Position numbers and translations under genes: made by a program
Notes under the pieces: model-generated
Told to the model about the DNA's origin: nothing
The model's input: only the letters and a program-made list of their open reading frames with translations
Databases searched by the model: none
Shown here: in pieces, positions 34,591 through 64,000 of the stretch
Position numbering within the stretch: position 1 is the stretch's first letter
Layout of the letters: every line of letters begins with the position of its first letter
Assembly: GCA_965230945.1 (NCBI GenBank)
Contig: OZ246397.1
Location: 88,029 to 152,028, forward strand
Direction: 5' to 3'
Source: an uncultured Gammaproteobacteria bacterium
GTDB taxonomy: Bacteria; Patescibacteriota; Microgenomatia; PFEM01; JAPLYW01
DNA length: 64,000 nt

Positions 34591-35128
34591 TGATCTTTTT
34601 TAAAATTTCTGAACTATTAATCTTTTTTTCAATAATTGTTTCAATATAAGGCTTCAGACTGCCCGTATTTTTTCTAATTTCTTCAGGTACGCCAAAACCT
34701 AATTCCTGCAAAAGACTCTCTTCAAATGACCTTACCAATTCTGATAATTGACTTTTATCAATTTTAGATAAAGAATTTTTTAAAAGTTCAAAGACGGCTT
34801 GGTTAGGCTGTTCATCAGGTGTCAGCTTATCTATCAGCTCGCAAAAATAATAAGCAACTCCCACTCGAACAAGGTTTTTTCGCCAGGATTTAAATAAGTT
34901 AACCAGCTGAGCTTCAGAAACAATATCTAAGTTCTTTCCTTTAACTAAAAACAAAATCGTATCATTAAAAACTTCTAAGCTGCCGGCTTTCCTGCTTGTT
35001 AACTTTCTCACTCCCTTAGCGATGGCCCTGATCTTGCCGTAATGCTTGCTGTAAATTGTTAAAATGCGATCCGCTTCACCGTAGTTTATTCTCTTAAGAA
35101 TAATCCCCTCAGTTTTGTAAGTTCTCAT
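34583..35128 (-). CDS. recO: DNA repair protein RecO (short form lacking the C-terminal Zn domain)
   Basis: N-terminal OB fold: EGIILKRINYGEADRILTIYSKHYGKIRAIAKGVRK. Confidence 0.7.
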   Translation of the reverse strand: MRTYKTEGIILKRINYGEADRILTIYSKHYGKIRAIAKGVRKLTSRKAGSLEVFNDTILFLVKGKNLDIVSEAQLVNLFKSWRKNLVRVGVAYYFCELIDKLTPDEQPNQAVFELLKNSLSKIDKSQLSELVRSFEESLLQELGFGVPEEIRKNTGSLKPYIETIIEKKINSSEILKKINV

Positions 35129-37098
35129 TAAAATTTAAATTCTTTATCCGTCTTCAGTTCAAATTCCTCTGTTTTTTTACCAAATTTAATCGTGTTCTCA
35201 TAACCATAGGTACCTGGCTGTTTCTGAATAAGAAGTTTATAAGGCTGACCTTCCTCTATTTTAAAAGGTAATTTATATTTAAAGGTTAACTGGGCTCTTC
35301 CTAGGGGCCTTAATGGCGATTTATCACCAAAGAAAGCCTCAAAAACGGTCTTGTCTAGGTCTTCATAAGTTTTAACTTCAATTTCTGAACCACTAGCCTC
35401 TATAAGTTCACTGCCCTTGGGTACATAAACTCTCACCCAGTCACGATAAAGGCCGTTTAAACAAAGCTCCCCCGCCTCCAGGTTGCAATTAGAGGCTTCA
35501 GCTGGGTTCTTGTAATCAATGGTTAAGGTTTTAATTACTGTTCCGTCTGAAGCGACTTCAATCTCTTGCAAGAAAGATTCTTTAATAAACATATTTGATT
35601 TAGCTCCAGCAAAATTACAATCATTAACATGAAGATAGTCGCCCTCATAATCTTTAATTCGACCGGAAGCATTTAAAACCTCCATTGTTTGCTGGATATC
35701 CTCATCAAAGAAATAAAAGAGAAGGTGTTTTTCAGCAATGTTGGCAAAGGCAATATTCATAAACGAAGGCCATTCTTTGCGGGGCGATCCCATGATATTA
35801 AGCAAGATAGAATGCATTAAGGGCCCGATTATTCCCTTTCTGGCTTCTCTAAGACCGGCAACAGGTCGGCTAATATAGCTTTCTAAAGCATAAAACACCT
35901 GAGGACAGTCACATCTTTTGTCATTTTCCGCTGAGAAATTACCAAAACCAGACACTCCAATGGGGCCTAAAACTTCTAAGATATCCACCAAAAACTGCGT
36001 GTCTAAAGCAATAATACCGTCAATTTTATCTTTACCTTCAACCCTTTCATAATTTTCCAAAAAGGTGTCCATGGAAACCTTAAAGTCAGGTGATAAATTC
36101 ATATCCCTTAAATGCCAATAAAAGACATTTTTATGATAGTTTAAGATTGGTTCTGGGGCCTTAAGACGGTTACCGAAACGGCTATCGAGGGTATAAATAT
36201 CATAAGAACTACTGGTTTCAAATTTACCGTCTTTGACGGATAAAACAGCATAGGCGGTTAAAAAACCACCAGTAGGACGCAACTCGGCATCGTTTTGGAA
36301 AAGCAAAAGATATCTTTTCTCATCAGGAATTCCTAAAATGGGACGTAAATGGCCAATAATCGGCTTAACCTCCCTTAATGTCTGGGCCATACCGTCAATG
36401 GTCGAAACTAACAACACCACTTTCTCCCTTACCTTTTTGCCAAAAAATTCCTCTGGATAACGATGAGGATTAATCTTGTCAATCTCTATTTGGGCTAAAT
36501 CCAGCTTTTCACTAATTTCATCTAAATTGGGCTGAATTTTATCCAGGGTTTCCAAAACCATAATTAGACGTTCCTCTGCTGTCATCGGCCCCCTGTCATC
36601 TTTTTTATCTTCCTCGCCCTCTTCTTCATCAAGGCCAAAAATATCGGCATAATCTTGTAGGGATTCAACAACAATATCGGCAATATCTAAAATTGATCTA
36701 CCTCCATTTATAAGATAAGAACCATCAAGATAATAGCCTCTGGCTAAAGGCACCACCTTAAGCCAAACCATTTTCCGATAATTGGAATTTAACTTTTCAA
36801 ATTCCACTTTGGTAGAATCTATTTTTTCAATAGCTTGATTTAAGTTTTGATCCTGAATTCCTTGATAAATACCTTGAGCTTCACCAGCTAATAGAGAAAC
36901 TTGCTTTCTAATTGATAATAGAGGTAAAACTAAAAAGAATAACAAAAGAATAGACAGGAAAACTAAACTACAAGCTACAATTAACCAAATTTTTAACTTT
37001 TTACTAAGACCTTTTTTACCCTCTTCATCCACTCTTAGCTCAGGATCGCCTAGATTTTTCATATTATCTATTTTATTGAAATTGAACAACTTTTTCAT
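35128..37098 (-). CDS. Large N-terminally membrane-anchored extracytoplasmic protein; tentatively DUF4012-like, a family often found next to polysaccharide loci
   Basis: 656 aa with a single TM near the N-terminus, then a coiled-coil and acidic stretch, then a LRPTGGF-containing domain. The family assignment comes from memory, not from a search. Confidence 0.5.
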   Translation of the reverse strand: MKKLFNFNKIDNMKNLGDPELRVDEEGKKGLSKKLKIWLIVACSLVFLSILLLFFLVLPLLSIRKQVSLLAGEAQGIYQGIQDQNLNQAIEKIDSTKVEFEKLNSNYRKMVWLKVVPLARGYYLDGSYLINGGRSILDIADIVVESLQDYADIFGLDEEEGEEDKKDDRGPMTAEERLIMVLETLDKIQPNLDEISEKLDLAQIEIDKINPHRYPEEFFGKKVREKVVLLVSTIDGMAQTLREVKPIIGHLRPILGIPDEKRYLLLFQNDAELRPTGGFLTAYAVLSVKDGKFETSSSYDIYTLDSRFGNRLKAPEPILNYHKNVFYWHLRDMNLSPDFKVSMDTFLENYERVEGKDKIDGIIALDTQFLVDILEVLGPIGVSGFGNFSAENDKRCDCPQVFYALESYISRPVAGLREARKGIIGPLMHSILLNIMGSPRKEWPSFMNIAFANIAEKHLLFYFFDEDIQQTMEVLNASGRIKDYEGDYLHVNDCNFAGAKSNMFIKESFLQEIEVASDGTVIKTLTIDYKNPAEASNCNLEAGELCLNGLYRDWVRVYVPKGSELIEASGSEIEVKTYEDLDKTVFEAFFGDKSPLRPLGRAQLTFKYKLPFKIEEGQPYKLLIQKQPGTYGYENTIKFGKKTEEFELKTDKEFKF

Positions 37099-37106
37099 TT
37101 TATTAT

Positions 37107-37745
37107 TTATAAGGCTCCTTTACCAGAAATCATGGCCCAGGGGGTTTTAAAAATAATAGCTATATCATTAAGAACTGAACGTGTTTTTACATAATCAGCG
37201 TCCATCTTTACCCTTTTGTCAAAATTAACATCACTTCTGCCGCTTACCTGCCAATAGCCGGTAATCCCCGGCTTAGCCTCCATAATCTGGTTCACATATT
37301 CTCTTGTTTCTGGATATATCTTTTGTTGATGCTCCAGCTCATCCGGATAATAAGCCCGCGGACCAACAATACTCATCTGACCTTTTAAAACATTAATAAC
37401 CTGAGGCAGCTCATCTAAGGAAAAGCGGCGTAAAAATCTACCTACCCTAGTAATTCTGGGGTCAGACCTTAGCTTATAGCTATTCTTTTTATACTTCTCA
37501 TAAATCTTTCTAAATTTAGGATCGGTTTGTAACAATTTATGGGCATTAAAAATCATGGAACGAAACTTATACATTCTAAAAAGTCTTTTATTTTGACCAA
37601 CCCGTTTGGGGGTATCAGCAAAAACAGACCCTTTGGAATCAAGCCTAATTAAAAGAGGGACAAGCAAAAAGATGGGCGAAAAAACAACTAAGAGGATTAA
37701 AGAGATAACAATATCAATGGTACGTTTGGCAAAGTCGTAAAACAT
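37107..37745 (-). CDS. Polyisoprenyl-phosphate sugar-1-phosphate transferase (small monotopic phosphoglycosyltransferase, WbaP/PglC-like)
   Basis: DELPQVINVLKGQMSIVGPRA and PGITGYWQVSGRS (Bac_transf domain). Confidence 0.85.
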   Translation of the reverse strand: MFYDFAKRTIDIVISLILLVVFSPIFLLVPLLIRLDSKGSVFADTPKRVGQNKRLFRMYKFRSMIFNAHKLLQTDPKFRKIYEKYKKNSYKLRSDPRITRVGRFLRRFSLDELPQVINVLKGQMSIVGPRAYYPDELEHQQKIYPETREYVNQIMEAKPGITGYWQVSGRSDVNFDKRVKMDADYVKTRSVLNDIAIIFKTPWAMISGKGAL

Positions 37746-37746
37746 T

Positions 37747-38862
37747 TTAAAGATATTCTTCCTTCTTTTTTTCTTTTAATAATTGAACTGCCTTTTTAAC
37801 ATTTTGTGCCTTATCTTTCCTGCAAATCAACAAGACATCTGGAGTATCAACAACAATCATTCCCTCAACATCTATCAAAGCCACTAAACGATCCGAAAAC
37901 CTAACCAGGTTATTGTTGCTATCAATATTATAAAACTCTCCCTTTTTACCAGTCTTAACGACCATATTATTTTCTTTATCCTTTTTACCTACTTTAAAGA
38001 CAACCTGCCAATCACCAATATCACTCCATTCAAAAGAGGCTGGTACTAAAACTAAATTATCAGCCTTTTCTGATACCGCATAATCTATGGAAATACTCTC
38101 TGCCTTAGCGTAAACTTCCTCAATAACTTCGTTCTCATCTTCTTCATTCCAAGCCTCTTGAATTTTTTTAGCCCCTTCAAAAATCTTAGGAGCGTGTTTT
38201 TGACAAGCCTTCAAAAAATTATTAGCTTTCCAAGTATAAAGATTGGCATTCCAATAATATTTATCACTCTTAACAAACATTTTGGCCTGGTTAAGTTTTG
38301 GTTTCTCTTTAAACTGTCTAACCTTAAAAACCTTTGTTCTTTCAATTGCTTTAATAACTTTATCAACTTGAATATAGCCAAAACCGGTATGGGGAAACGT
38401 AGGCTTGATGCCTACCGTAACTAACCAATCGCCTTCAAAGGCCATCTTGACTGCCACCATCATATTTTCAACAAATTCATCAAGAGGAGACATCAAATGA
38501 TCAGAGGCCAGATTAACAACGACTGCTTGAGAGTCAATTTTGGCGATAACGGCCGCACCAACCGCCATAGCTAAAGCCGTATTTCTGCCCTGAGGCTCGG
38601 CGATGACATTCTTTAAAGAAAGCCCCCCCTGAGCTAAAACCTCATCAACATAGTCTAAATTGGTAACCACAAAAATTCTTTCTTCAGGAACCAAGCGCTT
38701 AGCGCGCTTGATAGTTTGGGAAAAGATCGTTTCTTCTCCTAAAAGGTTAATAAACTGCTTAGGCGTCTTTTTACGGGAAGAAGGCCATAAGCGAGTGCCG
38801 CCGCCGCCGCAGAGAATTAAAACGAATAAATGATCTTTTAAATCTTGCTTATCTTCTGCCAT
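37747..38862 (-). CDS. manC: Mannose-1-phosphate guanylyltransferase (sugar nucleotidyltransferase)
   Basis: LILCGGGGTRLWPSSR NTP-transferase motif. Confidence 0.75.
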   Translation of the reverse strand: MAEDKQDLKDHLFVLILCGGGGTRLWPSSRKKTPKQFINLLGEETIFSQTIKRAKRLVPEERIFVVTNLDYVDEVLAQGGLSLKNVIAEPQGRNTALAMAVGAAVIAKIDSQAVVVNLASDHLMSPLDEFVENMMVAVKMAFEGDWLVTVGIKPTFPHTGFGYIQVDKVIKAIERTKVFKVRQFKEKPKLNQAKMFVKSDKYYWNANLYTWKANNFLKACQKHAPKIFEGAKKIQEAWNEEDENEVIEEVYAKAESISIDYAVSEKADNLVLVPASFEWSDIGDWQVVFKVGKKDKENNMVVKTGKKGEFYNIDSNNNLVRFSDRLVALIDVEGMIVVDTPDVLLICRKDKAQNVKKAVQLLKEKKKEEYL

Positions 38863-39946
38863 TTTTATATTCTGTGTATTCTCTTTCTATTGCCTTTTTA
38901 AAATTATCCTTAAAACTTTGCTTACTAAACTTCTTTGCGTTTTTTCGACAAACTCCTGGATTAAAATCCTTTGCCTTAAATACCTTTAATGTTTTTATTA
39001 AAGCTTGGCTTGTTTGTGGATAAAAGAAGGTGCCTGTCCTGCCTTCGACTACCGTTTCTAAAGCGCCACCGGCTTTAAAAGCGATGACCGGCTTTCCACA
39101 AGCTTGTGCTTCTAAAGGAACTAAACCAAAATCTTCTTCTTGCGGAAAGACAACCGCGCGACAATTTTGATAATAGCTTAATAGTTCATTATCTGTCAAT
39201 TGGCCTAAAAATTCAATATTTCTTTTGGCCATGATTTTTAACCTAGACATTTGGCTACCAATACCCACTATCTTTAAAGGCCAACCTAATTGATTAAAAG
39301 CCTTAATAGCCAAGTCAACCTTTTTATAGGCTACCAAACGAGAAACCATCAAAAAATAATCAGAGCTTCTTTTCTCTTTTATTATAAAAAACTTATTTAT
39401 ATCAAGCGGCGGATAAACTACTTTTGAAGATCGGTGGTAATATTTTTTTATTCTCTTTTGTACATTTTCGGAAATAGCCAGATAGAAATCCGGCCTTTGA
39501 CAAGCCACTTTATCCCAATTCCTAAGATATTTTAAAAGCGGTTTGCTTAAAAAACGCAATGGTTTATTTTTAAAATATTGATGATAACCGCTCCAAAGAT
39601 AACGAGTAGGGGTTAAACAGTAACAAAAATGTAAAGTTGAGGGGCGAGTGATAATTCCCTTGGCATAGGCACTGGTCACAGAAATAACGACATCAAAATC
39701 AGAAAAATCAAAGCCTTCAAAAGCCAAAGGTGTTAACCAAGGATAAAATTCATGATGTTTTGAAGCTAAAGGAAATTTATTTAAAAAGGAAGGAATCACT
39801 TGAAATTTTTTGGCCCACGGAGCGGTAGTAGAATTATAAACGGCAGTATAAAGCGGCGCTTCCGGCCAAATCTCATGAAGGGCCTCAAGCACTCTTTCCG
39901 CTCCACCAATTTTACTAACCCAATCATAAACTAAAGCAACTTTCAT
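38849..39946 (-). CDS. Family 4 glycosyltransferase (GT4)
   Basis: GT-B fold with a C-terminal E..G motif region. Confidence 0.7.
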   Translation of the reverse strand: MKVALVYDWVSKIGGAERVLEALHEIWPEAPLYTAVYNSTTAPWAKKFQVIPSFLNKFPLASKHHEFYPWLTPLAFEGFDFSDFDVVISVTSAYAKGIITRPSTLHFCYCLTPTRYLWSGYHQYFKNKPLRFLSKPLLKYLRNWDKVACQRPDFYLAISENVQKRIKKYYHRSSKVVYPPLDINKFFIIKEKRSSDYFLMVSRLVAYKKVDLAIKAFNQLGWPLKIVGIGSQMSRLKIMAKRNIEFLGQLTDNELLSYYQNCRAVVFPQEEDFGLVPLEAQACGKPVIAFKAGGALETVVEGRTGTFFYPQTSQALIKTLKVFKAKDFNPGVCRKNAKKFSKQSFKDNFKKAIEREYTEYKNGRR

Positions 39947-40124
39947 TATTCCTCTATTTTAACAGATTTTGGGAGGAGATTATTTTTTCTTTTTAGAAAC
40001 AAAGGGAACTAAATCTTCTTTACGTAGAAGCCGTGTTTCAGTAGCATTAAAAAACCCCGCACACAGCTTGCGCTCGCACAGGGGAGTTTAGTAGGGTAAT
40101 TTTACTATTATTGTAAAGTACTTG

Positions 40125-40172
40125 TCAAACCCAAATCTTATTCACTCGATCATAAACTAAGGCAATTTTCAT
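40125..40172 (-). pseudogene. Relic duplicate of the 5' end of the adjacent GT4 gene (15 codons then stop)
   Basis: ATGAAAATTGCCTTAGTTTATGATCG... (MKIALVYDRVNKIWV*) is near-identical to the start of the 38849..39946 gene (MKVALVYDWVSKIGG). It sits 1 nt after the stop of the upstream GT4 gene. Confidence 0.55.
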
Positions 40173-40173
40173 C

Positions 40174-41316
40174 TTAATTTATACTCTGGTAGACAGTTAT
40201 CGTTTCTTTAGCCATTTTCTGCCAAGAATATTGTCTAACTTTCTTAAAACCCTCCTTAATTAAATCCTCTTGTAATTCTTTATCGCTAACTGCTTTTTTA
40301 ATTTTTTCTGTCATATCTTGAACATCCAAAGGATTAAAATAAAAAGCGGCCTCACCATAGACTTCTGGCAAGCAAGAAGCATTTGAAGAAACCACTGGCA
40401 AGCCTATCGCCATCGCCTCTAATCCAGTCAAGCCAAAACCTTCTAAAAGAGATGGAAATACAAAGGCTTCGGCTTCTTGATAAAGAACATTTAGATCTTT
40501 ATCGGGGAGAAAACCAATTAAATTAACTAAATTTTCTGCCTTCATTTTTTTAACTTCTTTTTCAAAACGCTTAGCAAAAACACTTCTGGCACAAACAACT
40601 ATTAAAGATAGAGGGATTGATTTGTTAATTTCAACAATCGCCTGAGCTAAACGAGTGATGTTTTTATGAGGATAAAGGCTGCCGGTATAAACGACAAACG
40701 GCTTTTTAATCTTATATTTTTTAAGAAGCAATAAATTATCTTTGCTTATTCTTTTCTTAAGAAAAAACTTATCATCGACTCCTTCATAGGTAACAACCAG
40801 CTTTGAAGGTGACAGTTTATAAAACTTTATCAGTCTTTCTTTCCACCAATTGCTGGGCGTTATTACTTTGAAAGCTTTTTTAATGGCTGCATAAACTATA
40901 AAAAGATAAAAAAAATGTTTTAGCCAATAAAGAAAAACAGCGTGGGTAGTTGTTTTTATCCCCCTTGATTGATGCTTAATTAAATCATGAATAGTGACCA
41001 CATATTTTCCCCACCACAAAACTGGAACGTTAAAATGAGGAAAATGAGCTAAGTCCGGTTTTAGTTTAAATAATTGGAGTGGTAAAACAATTTGCTCTTT
41101 TAAGGAGTAATGAGGGTAATCAGCTAAAACTTTAATAAAATTCTTGCTTTTAAAATTTAAGGAATTAAAATATTTCTTTCTCAGGAGAAGATAATATCTA
41201 TCTTTATCTTTCTTTTGCAAAGATATTTTTTCGATCTGATTAATCAAATTGATAACGTAACGGCCAATTCCTGTGTGTTCTAGGCCATACATTCTGGCAT
41301 CAATAACAATTTTCAT
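40174..41316 (-). CDS. Family 4 glycosyltransferase (GT4)
   Basis: FPSLLEGFGLTGLEAMAIGLPVVSS. Confidence 0.8.
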   Translation of the reverse strand: MKIVIDARMYGLEHTGIGRYVINLINQIEKISLQKKDKDRYYLLLRKKYFNSLNFKSKNFIKVLADYPHYSLKEQIVLPLQLFKLKPDLAHFPHFNVPVLWWGKYVVTIHDLIKHQSRGIKTTTHAVFLYWLKHFFYLFIVYAAIKKAFKVITPSNWWKERLIKFYKLSPSKLVVTYEGVDDKFFLKKRISKDNLLLLKKYKIKKPFVVYTGSLYPHKNITRLAQAIVEINKSIPLSLIVVCARSVFAKRFEKEVKKMKAENLVNLIGFLPDKDLNVLYQEAEAFVFPSLLEGFGLTGLEAMAIGLPVVSSNASCLPEVYGEAAFYFNPLDVQDMTEKIKKAVSDKELQEDLIKEGFKKVRQYSWQKMAKETITVYQSIN

Positions 41317-41326
41317 TGGATTTTGA

Positions 41327-42268
41327 CTAACGTAATTTTAACAAACGAATCTTTTCTAACAAACAAATACCCAATAGTGTCAGTTTATAGATAAATCTGG
41401 GGTACTTATCTTGGTAGTGTTTTTTAAAGAAAATCCGCATAACTTCTATTGAAGCTTTGATGGCTTTTTCTTTTGTCTTTTTATCAGCACTACTAATTTC
41501 TTGACTATGTTTTTTAATTCCTGAAGCGGCCCCTTTGTAATGAATAATCTTCACCATTGGCACAAACATTATCTGCCAACCATCCTCTTTTAGACGATAA
41601 CAGAAATCTAGATCTTCTCCATACCAAAAATAATCCTCATCAAGCCAGTTAACCTCATTACCAGCCTTTTTTCTAACTATCAAAAAGGCGCCGCAACCAG
41701 AATCAATCTCATGGGTTCTACTTTTAGGCAAATAGCTTAAAGAATACCCTGAGAAGAGTTTTATCTTAGGAAAGAGTCTTTCTAAGCCAATAAAATAGCT
41801 AAAACTGTTCCAAACAGTAGGAAAACCCCGATGACAAGCTTGGTCAAGCGAACCATCGGCAAGTTCTATTTTGCAGGTAGCTGCGCCTACTCGCTGATTC
41901 TTGTCCATAAAATCTATCATTACCTCTAAGGTATTGTTTTGCATAATAGTATCTGGATTCAAAAGCAAGATATAACGACCATTGGCTTTTTTAATGCCGA
42001 TATTGTTAGCTTTGGCAAAACCCAAGTTCTTTTTATTTTTAATTAATAAAACTTCAGGAAATTCTTTTTCAACCATCTCTGTCGAAGTGTCTTGAGAAGC
42101 ATTATCAACAACAATAATTTCAAAACTATATTTTGTTTCACTTTTCTTAACTGAATTTAAGGACTGTTTTAAAAGCTTCTCTGTATTAAAACTGACAATA
42201 ATAATACTCAGGTCTATCTTTTTATTCATTAATTGTTTTTTTATAAATTTGACTAAGGGTTTTGGCAA
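41327..42268 (-). CDS. Family 2 glycosyltransferase (GT2)
   Basis: LSIIIVSFNTEKLL...IIVVDNASQD. Confidence 0.8.
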   Translation of the reverse strand: MPKPLVKFIKKQLMNKKIDLSIIIVSFNTEKLLKQSLNSVKKSETKYSFEIIVVDNASQDTSTEMVEKEFPEVLLIKNKKNLGFAKANNIGIKKANGRYILLLNPDTIMQNNTLEVMIDFMDKNQRVGAATCKIELADGSLDQACHRGFPTVWNSFSYFIGLERLFPKIKLFSGYSLSYLPKSRTHEIDSGCGAFLIVRKKAGNEVNWLDEDYFWYGEDLDFCYRLKEDGWQIMFVPMVKIIHYKGAASGIKKHSQEISSADKKTKEKAIKASIEVMRIFFKKHYQDKYPRFIYKLTLLGICLLEKIRLLKLR

Positions 42269-49422: not shown

Positions 49423-49424
49423 CT

Positions 49425-55119: not shown

Positions 55120-55142
55120 AAGAACATTAAAAGCTTATTTTT

Positions 55143-56078: not shown

Positions 56079-56081
56079 AAG

Positions 56082-57206
56082 ATGAAAATCTTAATGCTCA
56101 ATTACGAGTTCCCTCCTTTGGGCGGTGGTGCTGGAAATGCTAATTATTATCTTTTAAAAGAATTTGCCAAAGATAAAAAAATTAAGATAGACCTCGTTAC
56201 CTCATCAATTTCTGGTTTTAAAAGAGATAAATTCTCTGGGAATATAAATATTTACTACCTTAATATAGGTAAAAACAAGAATAAGGTTCACTACCAAACC
56301 AATAAAGATCTTCTTGTTTATTCTTTTAAAGCCTATTTTTTTGCCCGCAGCCTCCTTAAAAAAAATCAATACGACTTAATTCATTCTTGGTTTGGTATCC
56401 CCTGTGGTTTTCTGGCCATGTTGCTAAAAAAACCATACATAGTATCCTTAAGGGGTTCTGATGTTCCTTTTTATAACCAAAGATTTAAAAATTTGGACAA
56501 CCTTTTTTTTAAACGCCTAAGTAAAATTATTTGGGGAAAAGCCAAAGGCGTTATCGCCAACTCCGAAGGGTTGAAAGGATTAGCTCAAAAAACTGCTCCC
56601 AAACAGCAAATTGAAATTATTTATAACGGTGTTAACATTAAAGAATTCAAGCCGGTAAAAAATAAAAAAAGCAGTAAAAAATTAAGAATCATTTGTGTTG
56701 CCAGGCTTATTAAAAGAAAAGGGATTAATTATTTATTGAGAGCTTTAGGCGGTTTAAAAAATAAAGATTTTACCTTAACGCTTATTGGCGATGGTAAAGA
56801 AAAAGAAAACCTAAAAGAACTAGCAAAAAAGTTAAAAATTGAAAAAAAAGTTAAATTTTTAGGTTCAATTCCCCATCAAAAAATAGTAAAATATTATCAA
56901 GAAAATGAGCTTTTTGTATTTCCCTCTTTAAATGAAGGTATGAGTAACACTATTTTAGAAGCCATGGCTTGTGGATTGCCAATTATCACAACGAATGTCG
57001 GCGGGGCAAAAGAATTAGTCAAAAATAACGGCATTATTGTTAAACCAAGATCATCCAACCAAATTAAAAAAGCAATTTTAGAATATCTAAATAATAAAGA
57101 TTTAATTAAAATACACAGCCAAGCTTCAAGACAAATCGCCGAAAAAATGAGCTGGGAAAAGGTAGCTAAAAGTTATCAAAAGATTTATAGAAAATCATTT
57201 AATTAA
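56082..57206 (+). CDS. Family 4 glycosyltransferase (GT4)
   Basis: MKILMLNYEFPPLGGGAGNA...FPSLNEGMSNTILEAMACGLPII. Confidence 0.8.
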   Translation: MKILMLNYEFPPLGGGAGNANYYLLKEFAKDKKIKIDLVTSSISGFKRDKFSGNINIYYLNIGKNKNKVHYQTNKDLLVYSFKAYFFARSLLKKNQYDLIHSWFGIPCGFLAMLLKKPYIVSLRGSDVPFYNQRFKNLDNLFFKRLSKIIWGKAKGVIANSEGLKGLAQKTAPKQQIEIIYNGVNIKEFKPVKNKKSSKKLRIICVARLIKRKGINYLLRALGGLKNKDFTLTLIGDGKEKENLKELAKKLKIEKKVKFLGSIPHQKIVKYYQENELFVFPSLNEGMSNTILEAMACGLPIITTNVGGAKELVKNNGIIVKPRSSNQIKKAILEYLNNKDLIKIHSQASRQIAEKMSWEKVAKSYQKIYRKSFN

Positions 57207-57207
57207 A

Positions 57208-58059
57208 ATGAAGATCGATAATAAATTCATTGGCTTAATTTATAACAAGTTTGACTTCCCCATTCGGTTTTTATACTGCAGGCTTCCTCTATTAAGTAGG
57301 CTTTTATTTTGGAAACTCTATTCTTCTAATTTTGAGAAACTGGATAAGAACTTTGAGGAAATGAAAAAGATTATCGAGAAAAGTGGTTTTAGCTTTGAAA
57401 GGAAAACTTGTTTAGAGCTCGGACCGGGAAATTCCTACATAAATGCCTACAACTTATTGATGAATGGGGCAAAGAAGGTTATTCTTGTGGATAAATTTCC
57501 AAGATATATAAAAACAAAAAAACAGAAAGAATTTTTTAATAAAGAATTAAGCTATATTAAACAAAAATATAATCAGCAAGATTTATTTTTTGTTAAAAAC
57601 GGAAAAATTGATAAAAATTATATCGAATTTATTAATGGAGATTTTGCTATAATTAATTTTAAAGAAAAGATTGATTTTGCATTAACTATAAGTGTTTTTG
57701 AACATATTAAAAATGTCGAAAAGGTAATTGCTAAATTAAGCAAAGTGATTAAAAAGAATGGGTTAATATATCACTCAATTGATTTGAGGGATTATTACAA
57801 CTTCAATAATCCTTTTTTATTTTATAAATATTCGAAAGATACTTGGGAAAGATATTTAACAAAAGAAGGAACTAGCTACACAAATCGATTAAGATATAAA
57901 AATTTTAAAAATTTATTTAAAAAATATGGGTTCAAAATTATCTTTCAAGAACTCAAAAGATTTGAACTAATTACTAAAGTTAATATCTCAAAAGATTTTG
58001 ATATAAAAGATAAAGCTTTAAATGTTGGAATAATCAGCATTTTGTTAAAAAGAAAATGA
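57208..58059 (+). CDS. Class I SAM-dependent methyltransferase
   Basis: CLELGPGNS motif I and VILVDKF post-I region. Confidence 0.65.
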   Translation: MKIDNKFIGLIYNKFDFPIRFLYCRLPLLSRLLFWKLYSSNFEKLDKNFEEMKKIIEKSGFSFERKTCLELGPGNSYINAYNLLMNGAKKVILVDKFPRYIKTKKQKEFFNKELSYIKQKYNQQDLFFVKNGKIDKNYIEFINGDFAIINFKEKIDFALTISVFEHIKNVEKVIAKLSKVIKKNGLIYHSIDLRDYYNFNNPFLFYKYSKDTWERYLTKEGTSYTNRLRYKNFKNLFKKYGFKIIFQELKRFELITKVNISKDFDIKDKALNVGIISILLKRK

Positions 58060-58187
58060 TTAATTGGAGAAAACCAATCATCTATGCCTTGTTATATTTA
58101 ACTGGAAGTAAAATTTCTAGAAATTTAAGAGAAATTCAAATAATTGATAAACTTTCATTAAAAGAAAAAGAAGAATATTAACTATAT

Positions 58188-59048
58188 GTGAATATGAATA
58201 AAAATAAAACAAAAAAGAATTTAGTTAAATTTAAAGTTAGTGAAATTCAGATGGCCAAAAAAGAGCCTTTAGTTTCAGTGCTACTCTGCACCTATAATGC
58301 CGAGAGATTTATTGTTCCAACAATTAAATCTATAATATCGCAATCTTATAAAAACTTGGAAATATTAATATTAGATAATAATTCTTCAGATAATACTATA
58401 AATATTTTAAAGGAATTATCTAAATTAGATAAGAAAATCAAACTTTTTGAAAGCAAAATCAACCATGGAGCCTATGGAGGGTTAAACTATCTAATGAAAT
58501 TTGCAAAAGGAAAATATATTGCAATAATTGATCATGACGATATATGGCAAAAAAATAAAATTGCTATACAAATTAAATTTTTAGAAAAGAATAAAGAGTA
58601 TGTTGGTTGTGGGTGTTTATCAATATTATATTTTGAAAAGAATGGAGAATTTATTTTACAAAAATACAAATATCAACAAAAATTTGTACCTCACCCTAGC
58701 TTGGTATTCAGAAACGAAGGATACAGATATGATACTTCTATTCTATACAAAACAGATTCTTATTTTATGGAAAAAATACTTTGTAAAGATTCAAAAATAT
58801 TTTTATTTAAAAAATATTTTTATATTAATAGGGTGAGGGAGGATGGAGGTAATCTCTCAAAAAAATTGAGAAACCCTAAAAATATAATTTTAACTTTTAT
58901 TAAGACAAAAGACCTCTCTATGTTATTTAAGGGTCTATTTTGGATTATATTTCCAAAATTTCTTTGGAATACTTTTTATAAAATACTGTTTTCTGGTAAG
59001 AAAATTACTGATTTGGATAAATATGGTTTCAAAAAAGAGGACTTATAG
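58188..59048 (+). CDS. Family 2 glycosyltransferase (GT2)
   Basis: VSVLLCTYNAERFI...ILILDNNSSDNT...IDHDD. Confidence 0.8.
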   Translation: MNMNKNKTKKNLVKFKVSEIQMAKKEPLVSVLLCTYNAERFIVPTIKSIISQSYKNLEILILDNNSSDNTINILKELSKLDKKIKLFESKINHGAYGGLNYLMKFAKGKYIAIIDHDDIWQKNKIAIQIKFLEKNKEYVGCGCLSILYFEKNGEFILQKYKYQQKFVPHPSLVFRNEGYRYDTSILYKTDSYFMEKILCKDSKIFLFKKYFYINRVREDGGNLSKKLRNPKNIILTFIKTKDLSMLFKGLFWIIFPKFLWNTFYKILFSGKKITDLDKYGFKKEDL

Positions 59049-59266
59049 ATTTAAGATGGTTATTAACCGAAAAAATTTCTAATTTTGAAAAGATTAGAGC
59101 GAAAAATATTGATGAAATTGCAGAAGCCATAAAAAAAGTAATTGAAGATAAAAATTTAAGAGAAAATCTAATTAAAGAGGGTTATAAAAATGTAAAAAGA
59201 TTTTCTTGGAATAAGTCTGCAAGGAATTTATTAAGGGTCTATGAGAAAGTTTATAATGAAAGATAA
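59021..59266 (+). pseudogene. Relic C-terminal fragment of a GT4 glycosyltransferase (no start codon; frame opens after the TAA at 59018)
   Basis: Translation ...DLRWLLTEKISNFEKIRAKNIDEIAEAIKKVIEDKNLRENLIKEGYKNVKRFSWNKSARNLLRVYEKVYNER* is a typical GT4 C-terminal tail. It lies in the gap between two GT2 genes and overlaps the next gene's start. Confidence 0.5.
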
Positions 59267-60236
59267 AAAGTTTCCCCTAATCAGTGTAGTAATGTTAAAT
59301 TATAACGGCCTGGAATATCTAAAAAGAACCATTCCACCGATTTTAAAATTGGATTATCCAAATTATGAATTTATAATTGTGGACAATGGATCCAATGATG
59401 GCAGTCTGCAATTTATAAAAAAATTTAAAAAAATAAAGGTTATAGAAAATAAAAAAAATCTGGGCCTTTCTAGGGGTAAAAATTTAGGAATTAAAAAAGC
59501 CAATGGAGAATACATATTTTCAATTGACAATGATATTGTGGTTAATATAAATAAAAATGATTTAGAAAGATTAATAAACTTTTATAAAGAAGATGCAGGT
59601 TTTATTCAATTCCCATTAAAAAACAAAAACAGCAATCGTATATTTTATTATGGTGTTTATTTTTCTTTTTATGGGCTTAATATGCACAGGCCATCGGTTG
59701 ATATTAAAAAAATACTAAATTTATCAGGCGATTTTATTGAAATTGGTGGCCCAACCGGAGGTTGTTTTTTTTGCAGTAAAAAAAATTGGGAGAAGATTGG
59801 TGGTTTTGACGAATCTCAAACTTTTAATATAGATGATGCAGATATAGGTTCAAGGTCGATGATTTATGGGTATAAAAACTACCTGTACACAAAAGATTAT
59901 TTTATCCATCTAGGGATTGGAAAAACATTAACTATAAAAAATTATTGCAACAAGTATAAACTTCTTTTTTCAGGTCATGCGAGAAGTATAATTAAAAACT
60001 ACAGCTTGAAAAATTTAATTCTTTTATTCCCCATATTTTTTATTTTCCAATCTATAAAAACAATCAGATATTCTATAAAAAAGAGAAGCCCAACAGTATT
60101 ATTAGCTTTTTTAAAATCTCTAAGTATATTTATTAAGAATCTTCCTGATACATTTAGACAAAGAAAAATAGTTCAATCAAAAAGAATCATAAAAAAAGAT
60201 ATTTTTCTAGAAATTAAAGTACCAAGATTTAAATAG
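59241..60236 (+). CDS. Family 2 glycosyltransferase (GT2)
   Basis: ISVVMLNYNGLEYL...FIIVDNGSNDGS. The true start may be the ATG at 59256. Confidence 0.8.
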   Translation: MRKFIMKDKKFPLISVVMLNYNGLEYLKRTIPPILKLDYPNYEFIIVDNGSNDGSLQFIKKFKKIKVIENKKNLGLSRGKNLGIKKANGEYIFSIDNDIVVNINKNDLERLINFYKEDAGFIQFPLKNKNSNRIFYYGVYFSFYGLNMHRPSVDIKKILNLSGDFIEIGGPTGGCFFCSKKNWEKIGGFDESQTFNIDDADIGSRSMIYGYKNYLYTKDYFIHLGIGKTLTIKNYCNKYKLLFSGHARSIIKNYSLKNLILLFPIFFIFQSIKTIRYSIKKRSPTVLLAFLKSLSIFIKNLPDTFRQRKIVQSKRIIKKDIFLEIKVPRFK

Positions 60237-61502
60237 ATGAATAATTTTATAAAAAATAAATACCAACAGCATAAAGAAATAATTCATAATTTTATTTGGA
60301 GAGCGTTGCAAATATTTGGCAAACAAGGAATCACTTTCTTAATATTCATCTTATGTGCTAAATTACTTACTCCTTATGATTTTGGTATTTACAATTATAT
60401 TTTAGCAGTTATTTTCTTTTTGATTATCTTTGGAGATTTTGGTATCTCAACAGCCACCTCAAAATATGTGGCAGAATATAATACCACAGATAAAAAAAAG
60501 TTAAAGGCGATTTTATTTAATTCTTTAATTATTCTTACAGCCTTAGGTTTTATCGTAACTTTATTAACTGTTTTTTTTGGAAAATTTTTCTTAAGAGAAA
60601 AGTATATCTTTGTATTGTATGCCCTACCTCTTATTTTCTTAGCTCCAATAAGCTCCTTATATGATGGCATCTTCAGGGGGTTAAAAAGGTTTAAAGAATT
60701 GGCAATTATCTCTTTATTTGTAGGTTTTTTCTCTGTTATTTTTGTATATCTTCTAGTTAAAAATTTTGGTTTGATTGGAGCCTTAGTTTCTCAAAATTTA
60801 TTTTATTTCGCCCTGGTTTTAACCTTATTTTTTGTTTATAGAAATTTACATTTCCAATTTGATAAAAAATTAATGAAAACTATTTTTTCTTATTCTCTTG
60901 TCATTGGTGTTTCAAGCGTTGCTTATTTCTTATATTCAAGAGTCGATATTTTAGTTTTAGGTCATTTTGGCTATATTAAGGAAATTGGATATTACGAATT
61001 AATCAATAAATTTTTTGCAATAATGATACTGCCTTTTGTTATATCTGCACAAGTAATTGCTCCAAATATAACGGCTTATTTTGCTAAAAAGGAATATTCT
61101 AAAATCAGAAAAAAATTATATTCATTTATAAAAACTCTCATTCCTCTATCAATAATTGTTGCTATTTTCTTCTATTTTATTTTTCCTCAATTAATAAGAA
61201 TATTTTTACCAGAATATTTTGTCAGAGAAATGCTTATCTCAATAATGATTTTAAGTTTTTTAATCCCAACGAAAATTTGGGGAGTCTTTCAAATACAAGG
61301 TTTTGTAGTTGCAACAGGATATGCAAAAATAATAGCTATAACTACATTAATTGGTGGTATTTTAAATGTTATTTTTGACATAATATTTATTAAATGGGTT
61401 GGATTTACGGGAGTATTTTGGGTTACTTTAATCATTCATACAATAAGTATATTTACAGTGACTTTCTTTTATACTAAACGGTTAAGTGGTGAAATAAAAT
61501 GA
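60237..61502 (+). CDS. Wzx-like flippase / polysaccharide biosynthesis protein (MOP superfamily), second copy
   Basis: Polytopic; matches the Polysacc_synt-like N-terminus. Confidence 0.7.
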   Translation: MNNFIKNKYQQHKEIIHNFIWRALQIFGKQGITFLIFILCAKLLTPYDFGIYNYILAVIFFLIIFGDFGISTATSKYVAEYNTTDKKKLKAILFNSLIILTALGFIVTLLTVFFGKFFLREKYIFVLYALPLIFLAPISSLYDGIFRGLKRFKELAIISLFVGFFSVIFVYLLVKNFGLIGALVSQNLFYFALVLTLFFVYRNLHFQFDKKLMKTIFSYSLVIGVSSVAYFLYSRVDILVLGHFGYIKEIGYYELINKFFAIMILPFVISAQVIAPNITAYFAKKEYSKIRKKLYSFIKTLIPLSIIVAIFFYFIFPQLIRIFLPEYFVREMLISIMILSFLIPTKIWGVFQIQGFVVATGYAKIIAITTLIGGILNVIFDIIFIKWVGFTGVFWVTLIIHTISIFTVTFFYTKRLSGEIK

Positions 61503-62227
61503 TTTTAAGAATTTACAGAAAAATAAATAATAAATTAAAAAGATTATTTTTTGATTGTTATTATTATTTTTATAATTTAACGGATAGAGATTTAAGCTGT
61601 AAAATTAATAGGATTTTATCTTTCAATGAAAAATCAATTAATATGTCTGAGAATGAACAAGAAGAACAAGCTCTGCCGGGAATGTCTAAATATTTTAAAA
61701 ATGGTTGGTATAAATATATGCTTGGCCGATATTTATTTAGTTTAAAATATATAAAGAATAAGTCTGTCTTAGATACTGCTTGCGGGTTCGGTTGGGGAAG
61801 TTATTTGATTTCAAATTACGCAAAAAAGATTGCTGCGGTTGATATTAATAGTAAAGCTTTAGCTTTTGCAAAAAAAACTTGGAAAGAACAAAATCTGATA
61901 TTTAAACAATTATCCATTTTAGAACTAGAAAAACTAAAAGAAACATTTGATGTGGTCTTAGGCTATGAAATTATAGAACATTTAAATATCTCAGATGGTG
62001 AGAAATACATCTTACAAATTTCTAAAGTGTTAAAAAATAACGGGGTATTAATTATGTCTTCTTATTTTCCCGAATCAAAGAAGGATGCAAAAAAAATCGA
62101 AAAAAGAAATATTTTTCATCTACATATATACACAAAATCTGAGGTTAGATATTTTTTGAATAAACATGATTTTAATAATGTTAAATATTATGGTGATCTA
62201 ATTATTATAGCAAGTAAAGATAATTAA
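61499..62227 (+). CDS. Class I SAM-dependent methyltransferase
   Basis: VLDTACGFGWGS motif I and VDIN post-I region. Confidence 0.7.
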   Translation: MILRIYRKINNKLKRLFFDCYYYFYNLTDRDLSCKINRILSFNEKSINMSENEQEEQALPGMSKYFKNGWYKYMLGRYLFSLKYIKNKSVLDTACGFGWGSYLISNYAKKIAAVDINSKALAFAKKTWKEQNLIFKQLSILELEKLKETFDVVLGYEIIEHLNISDGEKYILQISKVLKNNGVLIMSSYFPESKKDAKKIEKRNIFHLHIYTKSEVRYFLNKHDFNNVKYYGDLIIIASKDN

Positions 62228-62229
62228 TT

Positions 62230-63582
62230 ATGAAAAAAATATGCCTAGTTTATCCTGCCCAAACAGAACTTCCCTATTTTTTTAATAAAATAACAAATAT
62301 TCCTAAAAATCCGGTTTTATTACCTCCCCTAGGCTTACTTTATATAGCTTCAAATTCAAAATACAAAATAGATATTTTAGATAATAGGGTTGAAAAATTA
62401 GATGATAGTAAACTTTTTGAAAAATTAAAAAAATATGATGTTGTCGGCTTCGGGGGTACAATTTTTGAGGCTAAACAGGCGGTAAAAGTTTCTACTTGTT
62501 TAAAAAAAATAGGCAAAATTACAATCTATGGTGGTCCAAATGCGACAGTTAATTGGGAGTTATATTTAGGAAAATTTTCCTACATTATCAGAGGGGAAGC
62601 AGAAGAGTTAATTGATAAATTATTGAATAAACTTAATTCAAAAAATAAAGAATTTATATATAAAGATGGAACTTATGTTAATAAAGATATCAACAGAATC
62701 GAACATCTAGACCGACTTAAATTCCCCAATAGAGATTTAATTGACTTATCGAAGTATAAAAGAATTGAAAGCTCATATTTACCAGGTATTTCCCCTGTAG
62801 ATACTGTGGTTAGTAGTAGAGGCTGTCCCTTTGATTGTACCTTCTGCTCTTCTTCTTATATCTGGAATAGAAGGTATACTTTCAGGCCGATGGATAATGT
62901 TATTGAAGAAATAAAAATGATGATAAAAAAGTATAAAACTAAGGGTATTTATTTTAGGGAAGACAATTTTACCATTTTAAAAAAAGGAGTCATAGAATTT
63001 TGTGAGAAAGTAAAAAATCTAAAGATAAAATGGATGTGTGAATCGAGGGTGGATACTTTAGACGAAGAGATGATAAAAAAAATGAAAAATAGTGGCTGTG
63101 ACGCGATTTGGTTTGGGATAGAGTCAACTAACAATAAAACACTTCAATTAATTAATAAGGGATTTAAAATTGAAACAGTCATAAAGACAATAAATCTTTG
63201 TAAAAATTATGGAATAAAAACCGGCGGTGGTTTTATGCTTGGTTTCCCGCATGAGAAAAAAGAAGATATTTTAAAGACAATAAAAGAATCGAAAAAAATG
63301 GGACTGGATACAGTTTTCTATAATAGAGTATGGGCAATTCCAAAGTCTGCGATGTATGAGTTTATTATTAAAAATAAATTAGATACCTATAAATTTGAAA
63401 ATATAATTATTCCCGCCACAAAATACTTATCGGCAGATGAAGTAACAGATCTTTATTATAAAAACGTTGGCAAAGACAAATGGCAAATTATAGTTTTCAA
63501 AAAAATTATAGGTGAAAAAAAATTATTAGGATTTAAGAATAAACACCCATTAATTGTTAATTTCTCTAAGAAGTTCTTTTAA
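62230..63582 (+). CDS. B12-binding radical SAM enzyme (class B rSAM, methyltransferase-like)
   Basis: N-terminal cobalamin-binding Rossmann region, then SSRGCPFDCTFCSS (CxxxCxxC) radical SAM core. Confidence 0.8.
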   Translation: MKKICLVYPAQTELPYFFNKITNIPKNPVLLPPLGLLYIASNSKYKIDILDNRVEKLDDSKLFEKLKKYDVVGFGGTIFEAKQAVKVSTCLKKIGKITIYGGPNATVNWELYLGKFSYIIRGEAEELIDKLLNKLNSKNKEFIYKDGTYVNKDINRIEHLDRLKFPNRDLIDLSKYKRIESSYLPGISPVDTVVSSRGCPFDCTFCSSSYIWNRRYTFRPMDNVIEEIKMMIKKYKTKGIYFREDNFTILKKGVIEFCEKVKNLKIKWMCESRVDTLDEEMIKKMKNSGCDAIWFGIESTNNKTLQLINKGFKIETVIKTINLCKNYGIKTGGGFMLGFPHEKKEDILKTIKESKKMGLDTVFYNRVWAIPKSAMYEFIIKNKLDTYKFENIIIPATKYLSADEVTDLYYKNVGKDKWQIIVFKKIIGEKKLLGFKNKHPLIVNFSKKFF

Positions 63583-63586
63583 TAAT

Positions 63587-64000
63587 ATGTTTACCCCCAA
63601 AATTTCAGTAGTAATGTCTGTTTATAACTCTGAAAAATTTTTGGATGCAGCAATCAAGAGCATTCTTGAGCAAAGCTTTAAAAATTTCGAGTTTATTATT
63701 ATTAATGACGGATCTACAGATAATTCATCGGAAATCATTAAAAAATATATTGAAAATGATAAAAAAATTGTCTTGATTAACAATAAAAAAAATTTGGGTA
63801 GGGCTAAAAGCAGAAATGAAGGCCTAAAAATTGCTAGGGGGAAATACGTTGCTATATTAGACTCTGACGACATTGCTTTGCCGGAGAGATTAGGGGAACA
63901 ATATAATTTCTTGGGAAAAAACAGAGAATTTTTTTTAGTTGGTTCAAGTGCATATAATATTGATGAACAAGGAGGTATTTTAACAACACACAAGTCAATA
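63587..64000 (+). CDS. Family 2 glycosyltransferase (partial; runs off the window end)
   Basis: MFTPKISVVMSVYNSEKFL...FIIINDGSTDNS...LDSDD. The antisense track ORF 63622..63993 is spurious. Confidence 0.75.
   Translation, partial: MFTPKISVVMSVYNSEKFLDAAIKSILEQSFKNFEFIIINDGSTDNSSEIIKKYIENDKKIVLINNKKNLGRAKSRNEGLKIARGKYVAILDSDDIALPERLGEQYNFLGKNREFFLVGSSAYNIDEQGGILTTHKSI

Follow-up and report, generated by a model that had tools for sequence, protein, structure and literature searches.

What does a genome of the Candidate Phyla Radiation (CPR) assemble with about 29 kb of glycan machinery, and is the product passed to proteins? The sequence-only reading proposed either protein O-glycosylation or a surface glycopolymer, with PglL-like Wzy_C proteins as candidates for the former. 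The window analysed here is the whole stretch of 64,000 nucleotides. From its PGT/GT/Wzx locus and the residue pattern of its Wzy_C proteins, the surface glycopolymer part of that proposal is upheld and PglL-type O-glycosylation is not. The locus probably encodes a flippase/polymerase (Wzx/Wzy-type) envelope polysaccharide that is conserved in Microgenomates-class CPR bacteria and accompanied by a variable decoration module.

Gene content of the island

Positions 35128–64000 are a genuine island of genes for lipid-linked glycan assembly, and the genome is Shapirobacteria-like (CPR); the homologues carry source names of Shapirobacteria, Microgenomates or Patescibacteria, as the earlier suggestion of a CPR-like origin would have it. 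Pfam scans of the island's 27 ORFs that reach 100 aa or more bore out the expected parts list almost item for item (Table 1). An initiating PGT, ManC, two Wzx flippases, an acetyltransferase, two methyltransferases, two GT-C enzymes and one Wzy_C protein were all matched, together with a DUF4012 protein and six GT4 and six GT2 enzymes where about twelve had been counted. Among the individual profiles, Wzy_C, PMT_2, Polysacc_synt and Bac_transf found matches and PglL_A did not. The supposed B12-binding radical-SAM enzyme is a radical-SAM enzyme; Pfam at E ≤ 0.001 gives the Radical_SAM domain only, and "B12-binding" corresponds to sub-threshold NCBIfam matches to B12-binding families. The minus-strand ORF at 63622–63993 was rejected as spurious because the plus strand there encodes the amino terminus of a thirteenth glycosyltransferase, and the island extends beyond base 64000. 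The dcw cell-wall cluster lies approximately 3 kb away.

Table 1. Features of the window with position, strand and supporting evidence.
Position	Strand	Feature	Evidence and occurrence
3–1073	-	Wzy_C #2, cut by window; 390 aa complete	Wzy_C 54.7 bits
1070–1804	-	GT2 (Wzy_C #2 module)	
1819–2292	-	methyltransferase (Wzy_C #2 module)	
2404–4962	+	lipase-like protein, one hydrophobic segment, presumably secreted	Pfam
7881–8969		SEDS gene	
19234–20463		SEDS gene	
35128–37098	-	DUF4012 protein, 656 aa	Pfam; last gene of cluster, conserved
37107–37745	-	PGT, small initiating polyprenyl-phosphate hexose-1-phosphate transferase	Bac_transf 207.7 bits
37747–38862	-	ManC, mannose-1-phosphate guanylyltransferase (GDP-mannose supply)	NTP_transferase and ManC beta-helix; TIGR01479 297.5 bits
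38849–39946	-	GT4a	Pfam
40174–41316	-	GT4b	Pfam
41327–42268	-	GT2a	Pfam
42222–43424	-	GT4c	Pfam
43421–44869	-	GTC1, GT-C enzyme of PMT_2/PMT families	PMT_2 65.9 bits; PMT 44.8 bits
44862–46325	-	Wzy_C #1, 487 aa	Wzy_C 34.3 bits (weak)
46294–47163	-	GT2b	Pfam; adjoins Wzy_C in 69/80 loci
47145–47723	-	p192, conserved	no match in Pfam or NCBIfam; in 65/80 loci
47720–48322	-	hexapeptide-repeat acetyltransferase, WcaF-family-like	profile matches
48319–49422	-	GT4d	Pfam
49889–51016	-	GT4e	Pfam
51013–51486	-	p157, basic, 157 aa	no family in Pfam scan
51479–52942	-	GTC2, second GT-C enzyme (PMT_2/TMEM260-like)	Pfam; in 23/80 loci
52933–53826	-	GT2c	Pfam
53823–55049	-	Wzx flippase 1	Polysacc_synt
55143–56078	+	ArnC/PgfS-like polyprenyl-phosphate sugar synthase (GT2), two hydrophobic segments	NCBIfam
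56082–57206	+	GT4f	Pfam
57208–58059	+	methyltransferase	Pfam
58188–59048	+	GT2	Pfam
59241–60236	+	GT2	Pfam
60237–61502	+	Wzx2	Polysacc_synt
61499–62227	+	methyltransferase	Pfam
62230–63582	+	radical-SAM enzyme	Pfam Radical_SAM
~63554–window end	+	GT2 amino terminus, truncated by window	

The PGT scored approximately 250 bits against the C-terminal domain of WbaP/WcaJ/EPS_sugtrans, under the NCBIfam equivalog cut-offs. The DUF4012 protein is anchored in the membrane at its N-terminus and continues through a long helical stretch into an alpha/beta domain and then a beta-sandwich, and p192 has a hydrophobic helix near either end with about 135 aa in between. The genes of GTC1 and Wzy_C #1 overlap by 8 bases, and the 467-base gap between GT4d and GT4e contains a 99-aa ORF (49593–49892). 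PgfS is the NCBIfam label for a Streptococcus glycosyltransferase that is part of a protein-glycosylation system.

A separate conserved module of a methyltransferase, a GT2 and Wzy_C #2 occupies positions 3–2292 of the minus strand.

Conservation of the locus in Microgenomates

In 80 Microgenomates species genomes the order GT4-GT4-AcT-p192-GT2-Wzy_C-(GT-C)-GT4-GT2-GT4-GT4-ManC-PGT-DUF4012-RecO is near-invariant. The cytoplasmic glycosyltransferases GT4a, GT4b, GT2a and GT4c keep their order across the 80 loci, Wzy_C #1 lies within the glycan locus in every genome (80/80), and sequence divergence among the core proteins is similar to that of GlyRS and RecO. GTC1 is an accessory member: of 71 loci, 45 have it in the interval from Wzy_C to GT4c and 26 do not. 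p157 was detected in none of the 80. A point against the Wzx/Wzy reading is that just three of the 80 related loci showed a Wzx gene within 10 kb; elsewhere the gene may be farther out than the flank covered, or its sequence too diverged for detection. The divergent plus-strand module (55143–64000) has a low GC content (25–33%), is almost missing from the related loci and is strain-variable.

Wzy polymerases are usually highly variable. The conservation of the Wzy_C #1 family, unlike that of the usual Wzy, would be explicable only if the polymer itself were conserved.

Fold and residues of the Wzy_C proteins

A second Wzy_C protein had been placed at the start of the window and is real; both proteins exceed the Wzy_C (PF04932) cut-off of 31.7 bits. 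The nearest solved structure is WaaL, with SEDS peptidoglycan polymerases as the second and third structural matches, and the GT-C_B fold, 12 TM helices and long outer loop of WaaL are present. In Wzy_C #1 the large outer loop carries a variable T/P-rich insert (aa ~300–350).

Both proteins retain the two diphosphate-type arginines of WaaL and PglL. The triads are R233, R360 and D390 in Wzy_C #1 and R216, R272 and D321 in Wzy_C #2. R233 of Wzy_C #1 aligns with EcWaaL R215 and R272 of Wzy_C #2 with EcWaaL R288; R360 was assigned by motif and profile alignment. At the position of the ligase histidine, an equivalence established through a canonical "THN" homologue, 146 of the 147 Wzy_C #1 representatives in the alignment have an aspartate (D390), as do 26 of 26 sequences of the Wzy_C #2 family (D321). 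R/K233, R360 and D390 are kept across 151 Wzy_C #1 representatives. WaaL and PglL conserve the histidine itself (EcWaaL H338, NmPglL H349), which matters for their function (PMC3643930).

An Arg-Arg-Asp/Glu pattern is associated with Wzy-type polymerases and SEDS enzymes of CAZy clan GT-C1, and Arg-Arg-His with ligases; as a rule of mechanism, this Asp/His distinction is the hypothesis of one comparative paper (PMC10920833). Wzy_C #1 has the polymerase pattern, in which one or two conserved arginines go with Asp/Glu at the histidine position, and is encoded alongside the PGT, Wzx and repeat-unit glycosyltransferases of a Wzy-type setting. It is a candidate inverting Wzy-type polymerase.

The analysis establishes which genes are present, a WaaL/SEDS-type fold, the residue pattern and synteny. 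The scheme that follows goes further and infers polymerisation itself, what the residues do, the sugars, the functions of DUF4012 and p192, and the final acceptor. The small PGT would load hexose-1-phosphate onto the lipid carrier, and up to eight cytoplasmic GT4/GT2 enzymes would extend the chain from donors that include GDP-mannose from ManC. The unit, acetylated by the WcaF-like enzyme, would be turned to the outer face by Wzx and linked to others by Wzy_C #1 through inverting transfer, with R233 and R360 holding the diphosphate and D390 activating the acceptor hydroxyl. The GT-C enzymes may attach side sugars on the outside of the membrane, with polyprenyl-phosphate sugars as donors, and the low-GC plus-strand half, which has its own Wzx, could be a second unit or a decoration module that varies between strains. 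Against polymerisation, Pfam detected no Wzz/PCP co-polymerase and no LCP-type ligase among the window ORFs, which leaves chain-length control and attachment unexplained; the conserved, membrane-anchored DUF4012 protein and p192 are candidate partners for these roles. At least eight glycosyltransferases is a large number for a repeat unit and would fit one long oligosaccharide moved en bloc as well.

Alternative acceptors and known systems

It is fairly unlikely that the GT-C enzymes (GTC1, GTC2 and a 911-aa protein beyond the window) are PMT-type protein O-mannosyltransferases, which would use polyprenyl-phosphate mannose to modify T/P-rich linkers alongside, and compatibly with, the polysaccharide pathway. 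GTC1 exceeds the Pfam thresholds for PMT_2 and PMT (PF02366, cut-off 22.7 bits), ManC is within the cluster, and an ArnC/PgfS-like polyprenyl-phosphate sugar synthase is encoded in the island. However, PMT_2 is broad and takes in lipid- and polysaccharide-decorating enzymes as well, GTC1 does not occupy its usual position in 26 of 71 related loci, the synthase is located in the variable module, and a PDB sequence search gave no match for subfamily assignment. If proteins are O-glycosylated, these PMT-like enzymes are a more plausible route than the Wzy_C proteins and a more direct candidate for the T/P linkers.

The pneumococcal ligase TacL has a Wzy_C domain. It is quite unlikely that Wzy_C #1 (or #2) acts as a WaaL- or TacL-style ligase that makes a lipoglycan by moving the glycan from its carrier onto a glycolipid of the membrane or another acceptor in the envelope. 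The closeness to WaaL (CAZy GT121; 7TPG/7TPJ) and the retained arginines agree with it, a polymerase-plus-ligase pair would fit two Wzy_C families whose contigs have the same lengths and are presumably identical, and a constant acceptor could account for the high conservation, an argument made for ligases (PMC10920833). In contrast to WaaL, the acceptor-activating histidine is replaced in both families by an invariant aspartate of the polymerase/SEDS type (PMC10920833), Wzy_C #1 carries a T/P-rich loop insert of 40–60 residues, and neither a lipid A-core pathway nor other acceptor-building genes were identified in the window.

Improbable too is the proposal that Wzy_C #1, Wzy_C #2 or both work as O-oligosaccharyltransferases, attaching a finished lipid-linked glycan en bloc to Ser/Thr residues of proteins that are secreted or displayed at the surface, with T/P-rich linkers, pilins or S-layer as targets. 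With PglL and PilO (TfpO) they share the Wzy_C domain, the two arginines and, more broadly, the WaaL-type fold. The T/P linkers noted by the sequence-only reading were both found (lipase aa 222–248, nt ~3067–3147; Wzy_C #1 aa ~305–350), and that of the lipase, a possible glycosylation target, recurs in a homologue whose N-terminal domain differs. Three genomes place Wzy_C #2 outside the main locus, between a lipase gene on one side and Big_6/Glucodextran_B and LysM surface-protein genes on the other, which resembles PglL, whose genes typically adjoin target genes outside polysaccharide loci (PMC3643930); glycosylation in the related Saccharibacteria has been described as unexplored (PMC11623550). 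However, neither protein matched Wzy_C_2 or PglL_A (PF15864), the model made to tell PglL from WaaL (PMC3643930), even at E ≤ 10. The histidine is an aspartate within an R-R-D/E pattern, Wzy_C #1 is inside a polysaccharide locus, and T/P-rich stretches occur in only two of 59 window proteins, such linkers being common in secreted multidomain proteins regardless of glycosylation. Most of the observations that the sequence-only reading had itself named as counting against PglL were therefore made.

A wall-teichoic-acid-like polyol-phosphate polymer would suit the monoderm-like envelope expected in CPR bacteria and the nearby dcw cluster, but is very improbable given Wzx export, GT4/GT2 sugar-transfer chemistry and no TagF-type glycerophosphotransferase, CDP-polyol synthesis gene or ABC exporter among the window ORFs.

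The favored Wzx/Wzy-type polysaccharide may be compared with several systems. SEDS enzymes (RodA/FtsW, GT119) share the fold class and an essential aspartate equivalent to the ligase histidine (PMC10920833); however, neither Wzy_C protein matched FTSW_RODA_SPOVE, and the true SEDS genes of this genome lie elsewhere in the window. Wzx/Wzy-dependent pathways such as M. xanthus EPS (PMC7484181) and Gram-positive capsule loci have a matching parts list, with a polyprenyl-phosphate hexose-1-P transferase, GT4/GT2 enzymes, an acetyltransferase, Wzx and one Wzy_C enzyme in a single locus. They differ in that no Wzz/PCP, tyrosine kinase, OPX or LCP was detected here; in their place the conserved components are DUF4012 and p192, the locus has GT-C enzymes among its genes, and the polymerase candidate is conserved class-wide rather than serotype-variable. 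By role, and not by whole-locus homology, it is comparable to enterobacterial common antigen (WzxE/WzyE/WzzE), a lineage-wide conserved Wzx/Wzy glycan beside variable glycan loci. WzyE belongs to the retaining clan GT-C2 with another residue pattern, whereas Wzy_C #1 has the WaaL/SEDS-like pattern of inverting GT-C1 enzymes. Low polymerase sequence diversity accompanies a constant donor and acceptor (PMC10920833).

Gene content of the glycan island and its surroundings

The window DNA belongs to a CPR genome of the Microgenomates class, and homologues of its proteins are source-named Candidatus Shapirobacteria, Microgenomates or Patescibacteria. GlyRS and RecO follow a classical dcw cluster for cell wall and division, and after them comes the island, in which nearly all ORFs up to the window end encode glycan machinery according to Pfam. 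The inventory proposed by the sequence-only reading was borne out by Pfam family matches to the ORFs. These identified a DUF4012 protein, ManC, a small Bac_transf phosphoglycosyltransferase (PGT), six enzymes each of the GT4 and GT2 families, two GT-C enzymes of the PMT_2 type (GTC1 and GTC2), one Wzy_C protein (Wzy_C #1), a hexapeptide acetyltransferase (AcT), two methyltransferases, two Wzx flippases and a radical-SAM enzyme. For the last of these, the closest NCBIfam families are radical-SAM methyltransferases of the B12-binding type. The second Wzy_C protein suspected at the window start (Wzy_C #2) is also real, with a complete length of 390 aa. Two ORFs, p192 and p157, had no family match. 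Across all genes, NCBIfam produced sub-threshold and generic matches only (IctB and RfaL for the Wzy_C proteins) and no match for DUF4012, p192 or p157. The last minus-strand ORF is spurious; the opposite strand at this point begins a thirteenth glycosyltransferase, a GT2. Overlapping metagenome contigs extend the island by this enzyme and by a PMT_2 protein of 911 aa.

Coordinates of features in the window
Feature	Position	Strand	Remark
Wzy_C #2	3-1073	-	cut at window start
GT2 adjoining Wzy_C #2	1070-1804		
Lipase-like protein	2404-4962		
tRNA-Val	5725-5803	-	
SEDS gene	7881-8969		FTSW_RODA_SPOVE
dcw cluster, GlyRS, RecO	13003-32288		
SEDS gene	19234-20463		FTSW_RODA_SPOVE
Glycan island	35128-64000		
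GTC1	43421-44869	-	PMT_2-type GT-C
Wzy_C #1	44862-46325	-	487 aa
p192	47145-47723	-	
AcT	47720-48322	-	
GT4d	48319-49422	-	
Gap	49422-49889		467 bases
Short ORF	49593-49892	-	99 aa
GT4e	49889-51016	-	
p157	51013-51486	-	157 aa
GTC2	51479-52942	-	GT-C
Divergent junction	55049/55143		
Variable module	55143-64000	+	
Spurious ORF	63622-63993	-	

An Rfam scan identified tRNA only. One of the two SEDS genes is located within the dcw cluster and the other beside IleRS. Within the island, the gap separating two GT4 genes contains a short ORF that opens with a hydrophobic helix and shares bases with the stop of the GT4 gene upstream of it. Since PMT_2 is encoded between GT4 genes in the corresponding part of one related locus (L001), the short ORF could be what is left of a GT-C gene that was lost. 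The very basic p157 overlaps the genes on both sides and was detected in 0 of 80 related loci, in which GTC2 directly adjoins GT4e. Either p157 is an insertion specific to this lineage or it does not represent a true gene.

Residue signatures of the two Wzy_C proteins

The sequence-only reading had proposed that the Wzy_C proteins resemble the O-oligosaccharyltransferase PglL. The PglL_A model (PF15864) was made specifically to tell PglL from the O-antigen ligase WaaL (PMC3643930), and neither Wzy_C protein matched it, or Wzy_C_2, even at E ≤ 10. Three important residues of E. coli WaaL, R215, R288 and H338, are conserved in PglL as R224, R298 and H349 (PMC3643930). R233 of Wzy_C #1 (LTASR) aligns with R215, while R272 of Wzy_C #2, whose counterpart in Wzy_C #1 is R360, aligns with R288. 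At the position of the H-N-x-x-L...E-x-G motif, both proteins have T-D-N/S.

When family profiles were compared with E. coli WaaL by hhalign and hmmsearch, the N-terminal half and the LTxxR arginine were aligned and the His region was not. As a result, a bridging homologue was sought for the His/Asp equivalence. A Paludibaculum "O-antigen ligase family" protein, obtained by tblastn of a plasmid collection, has the canonical DTHNMYVKALVETG, and its His aligns with D321 of Wzy_C #2 (BLASTP) and with D390 of Wzy_C #1 (profile alignment, probability 97%). A full-length alignment between the two Wzy_C families (probability 98.7%) places D390 opposite D321. All aligned homologues of the two families, 23 and 26 in number, carry the Asp. 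In an exhaustive search across 1.84 billion cluster representatives, the Wzy_C #1 family representatives recovered had the Asp in 146 of 147 aligned sequences, R360 in 149 of 149 and R/K233 in 146 of 151. Sequence and profile searches of PDB chains identified no meaningful match for either Wzy_C family or for either GT-C enzyme.

In a CAZy analysis of enzymes with sugar-diphospholipid donors, the ligases of clan GT-C1 (GT121, to which the WaaL structure 7TPG belongs) bind the diphosphate through two Arg residues and have a His proposed as the acceptor activator (PMC10920833). In SEDS polymerases, the residue opposite the ligase His is an essential Asp, and Asp or Glu occupies this position in all but one BP-Pol family of the clan (PMC10920833). 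Thus, Arg-Arg-Asp is the signature of a polymerase or SEDS protein and not of a ligase or O-oligosaccharyltransferase. By this rule, the residue pattern of both Wzy_C proteins points away from PglL and WaaL. The rule is the best available discriminator, although it is drawn from comparison and does not amount to biochemical proof. With the PglL_A match absent and His replaced by Asp in both proteins, the PglL-type reading is unlikely.

Approximately 45 of the top 151 Wzy_C #1 family representatives (P0376-P0509) are 900-1270 aa long and have a multi-pass C-terminal extension of about 500 aa. The extension had no Pfam match and is weakly similar to the window GT-C enzymes (hhalign probability 41-46%, controls < 1%). 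These long relatives may be fusions of a Wzy_C enzyme with a GT-C-like partner.

Conservation of the cluster and its variable module

Wzy_C #1 lies within a locus that has everything the Wzx/Wzy pathway needs, encoded by overlapping genes on one strand. Genetic work in M. xanthus assigned an identical set of parts to a Wzx/Wzy pathway whose polymerase is a Wzy_C-domain protein (PMC7484181). The locus is probably of the Wzx/Wzy-dependent surface polysaccharide type.

When one genome was scanned for each GTDB species, Wzy_C relatives were identified in at least 546 genome stretches. Gene order was determined for the best 80 of these loci by tblastn with the window proteins and was nearly invariant: GT4e-GT4d-AcT-p192-GT2b-Wzy_C-(GT-C)-GT4c-GT2a-GT4b-GT4a-ManC-PGT-DUF4012-RecO-GlyRS. 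About 15 of the genes, in a conserved core at 35128-55049, share their order among at least 80 genomes of the class, counted at species level. The median identities of the glycan proteins (36-57%) fall within the range of the flanking housekeeping proteins GlyRS (57%) and RecO (31%), which indicates vertical inheritance of a conserved pathway. A PMT-like GT-C follows Wzy_C in 45 of 71 loci and is therefore an accessory member of the cluster. No published description of this cluster was found in the literature searched, and glycosylation in Saccharibacteria has been termed "unexplored" (PMC11623550). Many species-representative MAGs with this clearly CPR-type cluster (loci L011-L090) bear non-CPR record titles such as "uncultured Gammaproteobacteria", "Nevskiaceae", "Bathyarchaeia archaeon", "Methanoperedens" and "Clostridia", which look like placeholder or mistaken names.

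Beyond the divergent junction, the coding strand flips and the GC content drops from about 35% to 25-28%; over the module as a whole it is 25-33%, compared to 32-40% elsewhere in the window. This plus-strand module is nearly absent from the 80 related loci and is therefore the strain-variable part. Together, the low GC content, strand flip and near-absence in relatives suggest a horizontally exchanged glycan module. It contains its own Wzx, two methyltransferases and the radical-SAM enzyme.

Proposed pathway and comparison with known loci

In the proposed pathway, PGT would start the unit on a polyprenyl-phosphate carrier, and the GT4 and GT2 enzymes would lengthen it, with GDP-mannose supplied via ManC and O-acetylation by the WcaF-like enzyme. 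Wzx would then flip the unit across the membrane and Wzy_C #1 would polymerize the units by inverting transfer. The GT-C enzymes may decorate the glycan outside the membrane with donors from an ArnC/PgfS-like polyprenyl-phosphate sugar synthase, while the conserved, membrane-anchored DUF4012 and p192 may serve as partners. The wall, a lipid or a protein would be candidates for the final acceptor. No Wzz or LCP protein was identified within the window. DUF4012 also occurs in Gram-positive bacteria, for example in the Bifidobacterium longum EPS locus (PMC5412050).

The T/P-rich stretches noted earlier in the lipase and in Wzy_C #1, the latter in the outer loop, do exist and are the only two among the 59 window proteins. 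Should such linkers be glycosylated, GT-C enzymes of the PMT family are the more direct candidates. Wzy_C #2 forms a separate conserved family (50-72% identity). Its homologues are on contigs equal in size to those of Wzy_C #1 and DUF4012 homologues, and presumably the three share contigs. Three loci keep the order lipase, MT, GT2(s), sometimes PMT_2, Wzy_C #2, a Big_6/Glucodextran_B membrane protein and a LysM protein. A lipase homologue (L009 1745-4666) has retained an S/T/P-rich linker at the same domain junction; its N-terminal domain is BNR/sortilin-like, that of the window lipase 3-keto-disaccharide-hydrolase-like. Of the contextual features, the placement of Wzy_C #2 alone resembles that of PglL genes beside their targets; nonetheless, Wzy_C #2 has Asp for His and is without PglL_A. 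One homologue (P0247) is a single 662-aa GT2-Wzy_C #2 fusion, mirroring the adjoining window genes.

A further reading, which seems rather improbable, is that the Asp-type Microgenomates Wzy_C enzymes, especially Wzy_C #2, form a new glycan-transferase class attaching the island glycan to proteins or wall, with DUF4012 an unrecognized attachment or chain-length factor that replaces LCP/PCP in CPR and some Gram-positive bacteria. A wall-teichoic-acid locus was rejected for want of a defining enzyme among the window ORFs.

To our knowledge, the surface chemistry of CPR bacteria, which combine very small genomes with a life attached to other cells, has been little described. This genome devotes about 29 kb or more to glycan assembly, and the longest contig with these genes is about 615 kb. 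Because gene order is kept in at least 80 genomes and Wzy_C relatives occur in at least 546 stretches, the envelope polysaccharide is probably conserved and important. It would make an obvious target for work with lectins and antibodies, on phage receptors and by cryo-ET. A further outcome is a clean, conserved family of Wzy_C enzymes that are candidates for the polymerase type. The roles of the two conserved partners DUF4012 and p192 could explain how such polymers are sized and anchored where the locus shows no Wzz/LCP.

Compared to textbook Wzx/Wzy loci, this cluster is conserved across a whole class, embeds GT-C genes, presents DUF4012 and p192 instead of recognizable PCP or LCP proteins, and has a T/P-rich insert in a loop of the polymerase candidate. 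Its role is most like that of a lineage-wide "common antigen" with an accompanying variable module.
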